Below the pieces are notes generated by a model. It worked only from the letters and a program-made list of their open reading frames with translations. It was not told where the DNA came from and ran no database searches. A DNA stretch of 63,104 bases, filler included, from Reclinomonas americana ATCC 50394 (taxonomy: Eukaryota), in the NCBI GenBank assembly GCA_048213135.1. It is 7 parts of 7 records of this genome, joined end to end, with 100 filler letters (N's around TTAATTAATTAA, not from the genome) between each part and the next. Parts side by side here need not be neighbours in the genome. Positions count along the whole stretch, not along the records: positions 40,733 to 49,758 come from PS015821.1; 6 more parts are not named here. One strand, 5' to 3'. A program made the translations under genes and the position numbers. Numbering within the stretch: the stretch's first letter is position 1; the number at the start of each line of letters is the position of its first letter. This document shows, piece after piece, positions 40,765-48,354 of the stretch.

Positions 40765-43700
40765 CTCCTCCAATCCCTCGTGCCACATCTCGTGCCACAA
40801 GATTGCCACACGAATGAGCTCTTCGGACACCAGCATGGCTTGATCGACCAGCCGTGAACTGTGCTGCCGCATGTCGCTCAGCACCTCGGCGGCAGCGTCT
40901 CTCCGTTCGGCATTGGCACTCTGCGCAACAAGTGAGCAAACAAAAAGTCCGCTTGTGCTGCCACACTCTCACGGAGACGAACGGGCGAACGAACCTTGGC
41001 AGCGACTGTCACCGGATACACCAGCGCCTGCGGGTGTTCCTTGCCGATGCGCGACAACAGGTTCATCACCAAGTCGCGAATCGGTTGTACGTGCGTGTGG
41101 ATACGAGCCATGAGCTGCGGGATGACCGCCAACCAGGTCTCCACCGGCAACGCATCAAAGCCCTCCAGCAGGGCCCGTCGTACACCCTCCTGCTCGCCGT
41201 GTTGGAACCACACACCCAGCAGGCGCAAAATGTCCTGCAGTGTTGCGCGGCCATCCCGCGAGAGCGACACCGATCGCACGTAGCCTTGCACACATTGCAC
41301 CGTATGCGGCTCAATGTCGGTGGTCGGCGCATTCGAGCGTCGCTTCTTGGCCGTGCTCGCTTCACGTTCGTACAAGTGCACGATCTGTTCGCCACCGGCT
41401 AAAAAGTGAGCACTGCCGATCAATGTGAAAAACTTCGCAGTCGATCTTTCCGTACCTGCGAGTTGGCAAGCGCCCACAAATGCCACGCCTTGTGCCAGTC
41501 GGGATCGAGCTGCGTGGCCTGCGTGTACAACGCAAGCACTCTCTTCAAGTCGTCCTCCTGCAGCGAGAGATGCAGCGTGTCAGAGGCGTGGACAAGCTCG
41601 TGTACGTAAAGCGTAGGAGAGACGCAACCGATTGCTCCTCCGTCACGTGCTCCTCCCATGTGCCGAGCAATACGCAGCACCGTGCGCGCAGCTTGTTGGG
41701 CGTGTGCGGACGAGACACAAAGTCCTTCATCATGGAGAGCGCCAGCGGCTGCAAGTCATTCTCGTCGTCGACGTTCTGACTGCCGAGGCTCCACATGAAT
41801 TGCAAGTATGACACAATGATCTGTGGTAAAACAAACACATATATAGAGTGGTCAGCAGGGTGACGGGAAGCGTGCGCCTCGCTCATCAACAAAACCTTCG
41901 GGTCAATGTCGGTGCCAAGCAAACGACGCGGCTCTTGCATCGCATCAAAGCCGGTCAGCGACGCAAGAGTATTCTGCGCCAAGCGGACCTTGTCGGTCTT
42001 GCGGCAGAGAGACACAAACTTGAGCCACACGTCCAGATCCTGCGACGGCGGGATCACCAGCGCACGAGTCGACAACAAGTCCTGCCAGTGCTCCACATTT
42101 CTCTGCGCGCCGAGCAATCGCTTCGTCCAGATCTGGCGCATCTGCGCCTGCCGGTCCGGTGCCGATCGCCGGTACGACGCCATTTCCTCCAAATCAATCA
42201 GCTGGTGCAGACGGAGCACGAGGCTGTAGGCGCGGCTGTAGGACTCGCGTACCAACGCGCTCACTTCCGTGTCCAACAATGAGCGGGTGCGTTCAACATG
42301 GACACGTAGTGCGCGCTGGTCGTCGTCGCGCACAGCCAACAGCGCGGCGTACAGGGACGCACGCGGATCGCCCACTGGCGACGACGAGCTCAGTGCGCCC
42401 GACGTCACGTACTCACGGACGTCTTCCCACTGGCCCAAGTGCCACGCAGCGGCAGCACCCATGGCGGCCACCTCACGAGCCGTCTCGTCGATCAGCAAGG
42501 TCGGCGGCAGTAATGCGGCCGACGATCGGCGGGGGTCACTGGCCGGCGTCGGTGCCGGCGCACCCTCAATCGACGAAATACGCCAGTAGCGCGACGCCAG
42601 GTCGTGCAGCTGCTCCCACTCGCCGAGCGCCTCCAAACAGCGCATCTGGCCGAGCACGTACTCCAACTTTTCACCCTCGTCCGCCTCCTTTTGCTCGTAC
42701 AATCGCAGTGCATCTGTCACGAGCGGTCAGCGTTCGGCACGAGTGCACATTCAACCATTTGTCATGGCCTGGCGACACGCACCTTCCCATCGCTGCAGCT
42801 TCTCGTACCACGTCTCCGTCATTGGCACATTGAGAGAACGCTGTGCGTACACCAGAATGCCCATGGCGGCCTCGTGCAGGTCCAGGTGGTTGTTGATGGT
42901 GATCAAGGCCTCCACACTCTCGGCCATGGCGCTCACCGTGCTGGTGCCTGTGGCACACAAAGAGAGAGAGAGAGTGTGTGTGTGTCAGTAATTGTGCACA
43001 CAGACAACAACAGACGACTGGCAAGCCACGCACCGGCTGGCGCAGGGACCAAGTGTTGCTGCTGCTGCTGTTGGAACTCCAGCTCCTTGTAATGCAGAGC
43101 CTTGGCGTAGGCCTGGCAACGATCGGCCAGCGCACCGAGGGCACGAATGTCGATCGGCAGCGGCTTCTCGTCGTGCTCCATAAATTCGGCCAGATTCAGC
43201 AACGTCTGCAGCACGTCCGACGGCAAGTTGGGCGACGAAAACGCCTAAGGAGGGAGGCAGACAGACACTTGTCAGCAAGGCAACAAAGGAGCAGACATCA
43301 AGTGAGTGCGTGCAGAATCGTCACCTGCTCCAGCGCGCACACGACTTCGGCCTGGTACTGCTCCTGCAGCTCGTTCCAGCACGACACAAAGCCGGCGTTG
43401 AACAGCTCACGCGCCAGTGGATGGTACACTTGCGCGAGAGCGCAACACGAACGCAGTGCTGGCGACGGGCTCTCCTTCAACAGCCACACTGAGAAGCGAC
43501 GCAGCCACTCGGCCCAGTCGTCACGCGTACTGCGTTGTGAAGCCTCCCATGCTGCGCAGGAGGTGAGAAAGCAAGCAAAAGGAAGCCAGCAAGGTATGGA
43601 ACGGCATGCAGTTCAAACCTCGCTTCAGGTTCTGCTCATTGACTGGCAACTTCTTGTACGAGCTGATCTCCACGGCATCGTCCACCACAGACGAGGCACC

Positions 43701-46700: not shown

Positions 46701-48354
46701 GAGAACATGGCGTCTGCACACGCACACGTCAGCTACAAGCACTGGAAACGAAAAAAGTGTGCGCGCGGTGAAATCAACAAACCCAGCAGAGGCGGGATGC
46801 GCGGTGCCACGAGCTTCGGCAGTCCGCGACCGAGCATGGCCATGCACGTGAGCGACTCGGGACAGAACATCTTGTGCTTGCTCCGATTGCCGACAATCAC
46901 CAGCGCCTCGCGAATCTGCACAAAGACTTCGTCGAGGTACTGCGACGCCGACGATCCCACAGCTTCCACCAGCCGACCGAGAGCCAGGAATGCCGGTCCG
47001 CGTTCTTGGGCCGAGGTCGAGGACGACGATGAAGAGGCCTTGGTGAGGCTCAGCAGGTGCCGAATCGCCGTGTCGAGGTGGCCCTCACGAGCAAACATGA
47101 GCGGCTCAAAGGCCGCCAGTTGGGGAATGAGACCAATGACCGCGCGCCGCACGTGCGGATTCTTGTGGTCGCGATACTGCAACACAATGGCGCAGGCGTC
47201 GCCAAAGCGCACGCGCATAAAGTCACCGGATCGTGCCAACAGCTCGCCAATGGCCAGCAACGAGCCGTGCACCGCGTCGGCGCTCTTCTTCTTCAAGCCC
47301 TGCACATATATACACACACACATATATTGATGATGAGAATCGCGCTCCTGCACTTCGAGAGCATCACAGCACGCACCTTTTGGACTTCATCAAAGAGCAA
47401 ATGGAGCGCCTCCACACGACCTTGCGGGCGCTCGGCAATGAGTGCCAGCACGGCTTGCAGTGCGTGAGCGGCGGCAATACGGACAGTGACTGAGCTCTCG
47501 CGCAGTGGTGCCCACACCGAGTCCAAGAAGCCGCGCACATGCGTGTAGAACATGGTTGGCGCGTTGCGCGCCAGCTCCGTCAGCACCAGGAGGCCACTCA
47601 GTCGGCGACTCTCCTCCCGCCCCTTGTCGGCCAGCACCCACTCGAGAGCGCGACGTGCCTGAATATCCACCAGGTCGGCCGTCACCGTGCCACCCACACG
47701 CGCCAATCGGCCGAGACAGGCGCTGGCCAGACGCGCCACACCGACGTCGGAGTTGGGCAGCAGAATGCGCAAATAGTTGCCGAATCGTGTGACTTTGCTG
47801 GCCGTCTCCTCACAGTCCACGTCCATCAGCTCGTCTGCGGGTCAGTTTGTGAGCACGACATTCACGAGGTGAAGAAGGAGACAAACACACACACACCAAT
47901 GGCCAGAATGCCAGCCACTCGATCGTTCTTGTCTGAGCTGTTCACCAAATCGAAAACCCGGCCTGCGCATGTATATGAGCCACTCTCCACGTTGTCATTG
48001 ACACAAAACACACAACACGCAACGGTACAGCTCGTGCATGAACTTGCCAAACTCCTCCGAGGAGCGCTCACGCAGCTCCGTCTCCACCTACATCATCAGC
48101 AGAGCAGTGAGCGTCACACATCGCACACAAACCGATAGAAGAGAGAGCACACACACACGCAGACCAGCATCTGCAGACGCCGCGGTCCCGAATGCAAGTA
48201 CGTCTGCGAAAAGTGACCCAAGTGATCCTGCTCATTGCCACTCATATCCGAGTACATGGCATCCGACGCGCCGCTGCTGCTCACACCACCACCGACGCCA
48301 CTCGCCTCCGACATCAGATCATCATCGTCGCCACTGCCGCCCACCGACGACGGC
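40765..48354 (-). CDS. TOR: Target of rapamycin kinase, HEAT repeats through FAT to the start of FRB; kinase domain lost in the gap
   Basis: [79 protein letters not shown] and [19 protein letters not shown]; about 25 introns parsed. Confidence 0.97.

Follow-up and report, generated by a model that had tools for sequence, protein, structure and literature searches.

GTTGCG introns and the last exon base: a donor layout displaced by one base in a window of Reclinomonas americana DNA

How is a 5' splice site (donor) defined when the exon before it does not end in G? The question is raised by the TOR kinase gene in a 63,104-base stretch of DNA from Reclinomonas americana ATCC 50394 (assembly GCA_048213135.1), referred to here as the window in its full length, where a first-pass annotation had read all introns that follow A, C or T in this gene as beginning GTTGCG. 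We analysed the window, which comprises seven contigs, together with TOR homologues and published papers. The observation is confirmed, and N/GTTGCG (a slash marks the exon-intron boundary) forms a class of predicted donors of its own in the window. Its displaced layout and its link to the last exon base (position -1) are real there, and the reader of the motif may be U1 small nuclear RNA (snRNA) in a shifted or a bulged register, a variant U1, or later factors.

Introns were predicted with a purpose-built Viterbi gene finder that uses codon log-odds and explicit GT-AG introns in three phases. A first pass without signal models returned 72 introns, many of them implausible, and is left out of all counts. 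In pass 2 a donor was GT only, with a branch-motif and YAG acceptor rule and a length prior (133 introns); pass 3 used a single donor matrix over -3 to +8 (124 introns); and pass 4 used a two-class donor model trained on +3 to +9 only and blind to -1 (125 introns). The full two-class model of pass 5, which knows -1, gave 130 introns and the best annotation, and was kept out of the association test.

Donors of the TOR gene

40765..48354, minus strand: TOR kinase gene, N-terminal ~2000 codons, identified by tblastn, the parses and a TOR profile hidden Markov model (HMM)

The gene is bounded by a gap at 48355 and by the contig end at 40733. Pieces of three TOR homologues (P0016, P0022 and P0002) aligned by tblastn tile 47829-40765 in order, as far as the FRB region. 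The final parse contains 24 complete introns and one further donor, at 40779, beside the contig end; 23 of the introns come from the finder, and the intron at 40994-40921 and the donor at 40779 were read by hand, bracketed by tblastn. Five TOR exons end in a base other than G (C at 48023, T at 46417, C at 46222, A at 45813 and C at 43801) and all five are followed by GTTGCG, compared with one of the 20 donors that follow a G (41628; Fisher p=1.1e-4). The same five coordinates, all GTTGCG, had been named in the first-pass annotation, and the claim now has a homology check of its junctions behind it, in which the HMM, built from 10 homologues, was used to score every in-frame GT-AG alternative within 45 nucleotides (nt) for 23 introns. 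The six TOR introns with GTTGCG donors are as follows.

47963..48023, minus strand: TOR intron of 61 nt after C, beginning GTTGCGTG; HMM score 18.7 bits above the single-matrix parse
46354..46417, minus strand: TOR intron of 64 nt after T, beginning GTTGCGTG; no frame-keeping alternative donor; pass 2
46154..46222, minus strand: TOR intron of 69 nt after C, beginning GTTGCGTG; best in the HMM by 13.3 bits; pass 2
45755..45813, minus strand: TOR intron of 59 nt after A, beginning GTTGCGAT; best in the HMM by 12.3 bits; pass 2
43738..43801, minus strand: TOR intron of 64 nt after C, beginning GTTGCGTG, acceptor uncertain, in a poorly conserved linker; pass 4
41558..41628, minus strand: TOR intron of 71 nt after G, beginning GTTGCGTC, the sole TOR GTTGCG donor after G; best in the HMM by 2.6 bits; pass 2

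The HMM outright backs five of these six junctions. At 43801 the best alternative keeps the donor, with an acceptor 24 nt further on, and stands 8.1 bits over the 43783 parse. Every HMM-supported TOR junction is recovered by pass 5, while gene finders with a single donor matrix misplace GTTGCG junctions, as pass 3 did at 48023 and 43801.

The first TOR donor (48164, minus strand) reads G/GTCTGCGT and carries its TGCGT core two bases deeper than standard. An alternative 6 nt downstream, at 48158, reads C/GTGTGTGT and has an equal homology score.

A second donor layout across the window

Over all gene models, G stands at -1 of 2 of the 17 GTTGCG donors in pass 2, against 35 of the 52 donors with G at +5, the standard class (Fisher p=7e-5). 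The corresponding figures are 6/23 against 56/68 in pass 3 (Fisher p=1.6e-6), 6/33 against 52/68 in pass 4, blind to -1 (Fisher p=2.8e-8), and 2/17 against 24/27 among the 58 introns that are identical in passes 2, 4 and 5 (p=3.9e-7). When the pass 4 introns are grouped by exon end, a non-G end is followed by GTTGCG in 27 of 55 cases and by another GTT..GT donor in 7 more, whereas a G end is followed by GTTGCG in 6 of 70 cases and by GTT..GT in one. These counts uphold, within the window, the first-pass view of GTTGCG as the usual form after non-G ends and of GTTGCG(T) as a major intron class, which accounts for 33 of the 125 predicted introns in pass 4 and 37 of the 130 in pass 5 (i.e. 26-28%). 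Since G precedes any GTT in 16% of cases in the window and 11% in exons, the frequency of -1 G before GTTGCG is near background, and the class is unconstrained at -1 rather than depleted of G. The association arises from the standard class, which strongly requires G and has it at -1 in 75-90% of cases.

The anatomy of the two layouts was counted in pass 5, with 68 standard and 37 GTTGCG introns. On the exon side, standard donors carry A at -2 in 28/68 and G at -1 in 61/68, the latter in a pass that knows -1. Within the intron they show G 35, A 14 and T 14 at +3; C 32, T 19 and A 11 at +4; T 41 and C 16 at +6; and G 27, C 19, T 12 and A 10 at +7. The GTTGCG class shows T 29 and C 7 at +7 and G 14, C 12, T 6 and A 5 at +8, so that its +7 resembles the standard +6 and its +8 resembles the standard +7 better than the standard +8. 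The class resembles the standard profile moved one base into the intron, and the displacement noted in the first-pass annotation, in which the UGCGU core lies a base deeper than in G/GUGCGU, is found again in these counts. Displaced forms of other standard hexamers are also present (GTTTCGT, GTTGTGT and similar), and 7 of the 8 such GTT..GT donors in pass 4 follow a non-G base. GTTGCG donors cluster on the optimal core much more tightly than standard donors do. When a GGTGCGT template is applied in two registers and a match of at least 5/7 is required, it captures 84-86% of donors and 15% of exonic GT sites.

In length, composition and 3' signals the two kinds of intron are alike. Median length is 68 nt for GTTGCG and 70 nt for standard introns (Mann-Whitney p=0.41), and base composition is common to both. 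A YTNAY branch motif is present in 33/37 GTTGCG and 58/68 standard introns, at a median distance of 18 and 21 nt, respectively, from the acceptor; since the finder rewards a branch motif, this agreement is partly non-independent. CTCAC, CTGAC and CTCAT are the top branch motifs in both classes (16, 6 and 5 of the GTTGCG introns), and the acceptor is CAG in 33/37 and TAG in 4/37 GTTGCG introns, compared with CAG in 62/68 standard introns. GT...AG ends occur in all 130 predicted introns by construction. On these signals the GTTGCG introns are predicted to be ordinary GT-AG introns of the major spliceosome (U2-type), of ~70 nt. A cut one base downstream was rejected: the intron ends would be non-GT and non-AG, and an unchanged mRNA would require G as the first base of the following exon, where the predicted exons do not regularly have it.

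U12-type introns were also considered and rejected. They resemble the present case in placing a second constrained 5' motif, free of exon preference, beside a degenerate major class, and they have the 5' motif RTATCCTT and the branch site TCCTTAAC. Here, by contrast, the donor is GTTGCG(T), and the branch motifs (CTCAC, CTGAC and CTCAT) and acceptors are those of the standard introns.

Might the class be a product of the prediction, with GTTGCG a frequent exonic word that seldom follows G and is mistaken for a donor? False GTTGCG donors would also be poor in G, given how rarely G precedes any GTT; 5 of the 37 predicted introns leave the frame intact if retained; and 72 more GTTGCG sites are not predicted as donors, some of which, e.g. 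4315 (plus), 9432 (minus) and 35600 (minus), look like missed introns. We nevertheless consider such an artefact very improbable. GTTGCG occurs 107 times on both strands, against ~36 expected from base composition. Its share of all GT sites is 1.4%, yet it supplies 17 of the 133 donors of pass 2, which has no donor model (binomial p=6e-12), homology backs the TOR junctions, the branch motif stands at its usual distance and CAG or TAG closes 37/37 introns. Moreover, the frame requires removal of 32 of the 37 GTTGCG introns (65 of 68 standard introns), and the real signal in the association is the -1 G of the other class. An origin as young mobile, introner-like introns that carry their own complete 5' end, and so dispense with a G in the target exon, would fit the uneven share of GTTGCG among genes (5/6 introns at 3-2605, 3/3 at 37630-38462 and 1/10 at 28096-30050, all on the plus strand; permutation p=0.015, in a small sample). 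In an all-against-all blastn comparison of intron interiors, however, the median best non-self score was 21.4 bits in both classes and the GTTGCG maximum 23.3 bits, and the six intron pairs that reached E<0.01 did not include a GTTGCG intron. GTTGCG interiors thus resemble one another no more than other intron interiors do, and these introns do not form a mobile-intron family; with lengths and 3' signals also equal to those of other introns, we regard this origin as scarcely credible.

Possible readers of the displaced motif

Shifted-register 5' splice sites of mammals were reportedly described by Roca and Krainer in 2009. The likeness to the present class is close: such sites carry an extra U after GU and then continue as a usual site does from +2, G+1 can take the pairing slot of the -1 G, and the cut stays at GU. 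They differ in having an AAGU core, where the window has a near-invariant, GC-type GTTGCGT, and in a register established experimentally, where that of the window is proposed from pairing. PMC4856993 gives proof of shifted and bulged registers from human cells and puts the share of noncanonical registers, taken together, at 1-2% of human 5' splice sites; the class here accounts for 26-28% of predicted introns. A layout that is a rarity in humans therefore looks routine in this window.

We give about an even chance to the reading that the two donor layouts are recognised by one U1 in two registers. A single U1 small nuclear ribonucleoprotein would bind the heptamer G-(G or U)-U-G-C-G-U in both layouts. 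The standard layout, (A)G/GU-N-(C or N)-G-U, would rely on the exon-final G and tolerate variation at +3, +4 and +6, while the second, N/GU-UGCGU, would present a near-invariant heptamer with the UGCGU core one base deeper and leave the exon end free. In the second layout the intron G+1 would occupy the slot of the exonic -1 G (a +1 shifted register) or, as an equivalent alternative, one of the two U's would be bulged; U6 and U5, acting later, would then cut before the sole GU present.

Pair counts are consistent with this proposal. Against the canonical U1 5' end, taken as the sequence AUACUUACCUG given in PMC4856993, the 37 GTTGCG donors form on average 4.14 pairs in the canonical, 6.46 in the shifted and 6.43 in the +3 bulged register, and standard donors 7.5, 4.8 and 6.2, respectively. 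The bulge has a human counterpart in the +2/+3 register (54 to 68 sites in Table 3 of PMC4856993), in which one U after G+1 is likewise looped out and the rest pairs in order. A bulge predicts that -1 G helps, however, and the observed 6/33 against a background of 16% is mildly against it. This much of the earlier proposal of a shifted or bulged U1 stands, and the predicted energies do not follow it. The annotation had also suggested locating the U1 and U6 genes with Rfam models; a scan of the window at gathering thresholds gave no matches, so that neither snRNA was found within these 63 kb, and energies were computed with the canonical 5' end and with an ACGUAC variant, hypothetical here.

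Several observations weigh against reading by one U1. The shifted and bulged registers are near-equal in pairs and are indistinguishable from sequence. The predicted duplex with canonical U1 is ~-1.3 kcal/mol for the GTTGCG class, compared with -6.3 for the standard class. H/GUGCGU (H being A, C or T) is predicted to bind better than H/GUUGCGU with canonical U1 (-2.2 against -0.6 kcal/mol) and with ACGUAC U1 (-8.1 against -5.3 kcal/mol), yet only 3 H/GTGCGT donors are used against 27 H/GTTGCG, a roughly nine-fold deficit, although exons contain H/GTGCGT no less often per heptamer (13 sites over three heptamers, against 3). Better predicted binding coupled with rarer use implies that pairing strength alone is not the whole story. 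The C that is strongly preferred at +4 is the least suitable base for canonical U1. The -1 A of the GTTGCG class (9/37) lacks an enrichment like that of the standard -2 A (28/68). Finally, the homology check of junctions covers TOR, and the other gene models come from ab initio prediction on 63 kb.

At +4 of the standard donors C is found most often (32/68), and it is the sole base unable to pair there with canonical U1. The same oddity is reported from other protists. AG/GTGCGT donors occur with CTGAC branch sites in two Mamiellales, Ostreococcus and Micromonas (PMC2483917, PMC3879977). A preference for +4 C alongside a standard U1 is reported for Thecamonas and Micromonas, whereas in the intron-rich amoeba Mastigamoeba balamuthi, whose donors are GUGCGC, U1 carries ACGUAC instead of ACUUAC (10.1101/2022.06.08.495308). 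The +4 C is thus common to Mamiellales, Thecamonas and Mastigamoeba, and a matching U1 change is described for Mastigamoeba alone. The standard class here is like these GC-rich protist donors in preferring GTGCG(T/C) and in its CTGAC and CTCAC branch motifs.

Two other readings compete with recognition by one U1. A second U1 variant, with its 5' end altered opposite +1 or +2, could pair perfectly with GUUGCGU in the normal register. The near-invariant 7-mer with T at +7 in 29/37 and a free exon end looks like full complementarity, and GTTGCG is used far more than H/GTGCGT despite weaker predicted binding to a single U1. Protist U1 5' ends also vary (ACAAAC in Entamoeba, ACGUAC in Mastigamoeba), and for Physarum the same source mentions candidates for both a standard and a modified U1 (10.1101/2022.06.08.495308). 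More broadly, at least a quarter of the introns could be defined by a dedicated reader, i.e. a second U1 or a remodelled U1 5' end such as ACGUAC, that recognises GUUGCGU as a unit with the cut one base upstream. With an ACGUAC U1 the predicted energy of the GTTGCG class is ~-5.6 kcal/mol and shifted pairs appear in 37/37 minimum-energy duplexes. The two classes share their downstream preferences and 3' signals, however, as expected of one machinery, and we hold the pair of snRNAs to be improbable and the dedicated reader equally so. If true, the latter would free exon sequence from the -1 G constraint, and a single major spliceosome would operate a dual code of 5' splice sites.

Alternatively, the class may be set after or beside U1, by contacts with the U6 ACAGAGA box and U5 or by a LUC7-type factor, in which case GTTGCGT would be the local form of a 'right-handed' site. 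Compensation between exon side and intron side is a known general split, described as left-handed and right-handed classes tied to LUC7 (PMC11842720) and as a split consensus (PMC11732430), and the failure of U1 thermodynamics to account for donor usage points the same way. The likeness is clear: one class combines a strong exon side (-1 G) with a weak intron, and the other a free exon side with a strong intron. In animals, plants and fungi, however, both classes keep the same register, with G at +5, whereas here the intron-strong core is moved by one base and lacks the +5 G. The reading by itself leaves the extra U unexplained (why not GTGCGT?), and U6 in the standard register would presumably face G, C and G rather than C, G and U at +4 to +6, so that it would need the same displacement. 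We regard it as doubtful, and return to one U1 in two registers as the reading that we prefer.

Exon- and intron-side compensation and shifted registers are known, and a displaced core as a major class was not found in print. Literature on GTTGCG or GUUGCG with intron or splice yielded primers and unrelated matches only, and no large donor class in which a one-base-displaced core replaces the -1 G was found, a point on which supplementary logos could bear. The papers on +4 C donors in GC-rich protists mention neither a GTTGCG class nor a dependence on -1 in the text available, supplementary logos apart. In splicing it is not settled how the position of the cut is fixed: U1 binds first and U6 and U5 later, and their registers need not agree. 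Work on this question has until now relied on mutants and on some dozens of rare human sites. An organism with the displaced layout in about one intron out of four, with a near-invariant core and a clean -1 association, would offer a natural large sample, and the displaced class would help to test co-evolution of snRNAs with splice signals.

Further GTTGCG introns and the contents of the window

The GTTGCG introns predicted outside TOR are given below with their -1 base (the last exon base) and the passes that predict them.

1273..1333, plus strand: GTTGCG intron, -1 T, pass 4
1460..1535, plus strand: GTTGCG intron, -1 T, pass 4
1627..1697, plus strand: GTTGCG intron, -1 A, passes 2 and 4
2262..2336, plus strand: GTTGCG intron, -1 A, pass 4
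2453..2532, plus strand: GTTGCG intron, -1 C, passes 2 and 4
6075..6140, plus strand: GTTGCG intron, -1 C, passes 3 and 4
7116..7181, plus strand: GTTGCG intron, -1 A, pass 4
7919..7987, plus strand: GTTGCG intron, -1 C, pass 4
13960..14014, plus strand: GTTGCG intron, -1 A, pass 4
14531..14595, plus strand: GTTGCG intron, -1 G, passes 3 and 4
14899..14969, plus strand: GTTGCG intron, -1 A, passes 2 and 4
17259..17313, plus strand: GTTGCG intron, -1 C, passes 2 and 4
17674..17744, plus strand: GTTGCG intron, -1 T, passes 2 and 4
19782..19852, plus strand: GTTGCG intron, -1 G, passes 3 and 4
20500..20568, plus strand: GTTGCG intron, -1 A, pass 4
20910..20988, plus strand: GTTGCG intron, -1 G, passes 2 and 4
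21490..21557, plus strand: GTTGCG intron, -1 T, passes 2 and 4
21618..21682, plus strand: GTTGCG intron, -1 C, passes 2 and 4
24941..25004, plus strand: GTTGCG intron, -1 C, passes 2 and 4
26431..26497, plus strand: GTTGCG intron, -1 A, passes 2 and 4
29072..29174, plus strand: GTTGCG intron of 103 nt, -1 G, passes 3 and 4
31477..31541, minus strand: GTTGCG intron, -1 G, passes 3 and 4
36290..36350, minus strand: GTTGCG intron, -1 G, pass 5 only
37766..37850, plus strand: GTTGCG intron in a weakly scored gene, -1 T, pass 5 only
38068..38135, plus strand: GTTGCG intron in a weakly scored gene, -1 T, pass 5 only
38180..38328, plus strand: GTTGCG intron of 149 nt, low confidence, -1 T, pass 5
59469..59545, minus strand: GTTGCG intron, -1 C, passes 3 and 4
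59668..59735, minus strand: GTTGCG intron, -1 T, passes 2 and 4
59997..60069, minus strand: GTTGCG intron, -1 T, pass 4
61142..61196, minus strand: GTTGCG intron, -1 T, passes 2 and 4
61843..61906, minus strand: GTTGCG intron, -1 A, passes 2 and 4

Among the further sites to which the first-pass annotation had extended the pattern, 1273, 1460, 1627, 7116 and 7919 are predicted GTTGCG donors, whereas 4315, 9432 and 35600 bear the motif and are not predicted. Of the exceptions that it gave, A/GTGCGT at 6984 is a predicted donor, and the one near 27884 lies at a contig end.

4315..4379, plus strand: candidate GTTGCG intron after A, GTTGCGCG...CTGACAG, with a gap on either side and not covered by gene models
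9363..9432 (end approximate), minus strand: candidate GTTGCG intron after T, GTTGCGTC...GCTCAC...CGCAG, outside confident gene models
35531..35600, minus strand: candidate GTTGCG intron after T, GTTGCGCG...CTCAC...CACAG, exon in gene models
6984..7048, plus strand: exception, standard-register donor after A, GTGCGTCG, passes 2 and 4

The contigs of the window meet at six joins, each consisting of 44 N, TTAATTAATTAA and 44 N, where TTAATTAATTAA is a stop in all six frames.

27996-28095: contig join
40633-40732: contig join
49759-49858: contig join
54587-54686: contig join
57110-57209: contig join
58565-58664: contig join

The joins make the window a string of separate contigs, and neighbourhood across them has no meaning; genes, including TOR, break off there, and longer runs of N are gaps. 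Outside gaps GC content is ~57-63%, and this GC-rich DNA is dense in introns. None of the 22 largest exons outside TOR matched a Pfam family, and many of them are low-complexity stretches rich in Ser, Ala and Pro. Three single-exon open reading frames from the window had no exact match in the sequence collection in which they were looked up. Microsatellites lie at contig ends, with a long (CA)n run and ACG/GAC trinucleotide repeats at 27900-27995 (plus), 27976-27995 and 58665-58684, and probably broke the assembly.

The lineage of the window DNA is poorly sampled in databases. For the TOR exon at 41896-42711 (minus strand, 272 residues) the best database relatives are 41% identical, with the exception of one fragment. 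A scan of metagenome contigs with this exon, and one of prokaryote genome contigs with the fragment, found no relative. The fragment, P0044, is a 289-residue 'hypothetical protein' in a Burkholderiales metagenome bin that is 80% identical over 58% of the TOR exon, and presumably comes from a eukaryotic contig that was binned wrongly. Its C-terminus runs on into an intron located as at the 41895 donor of the window.

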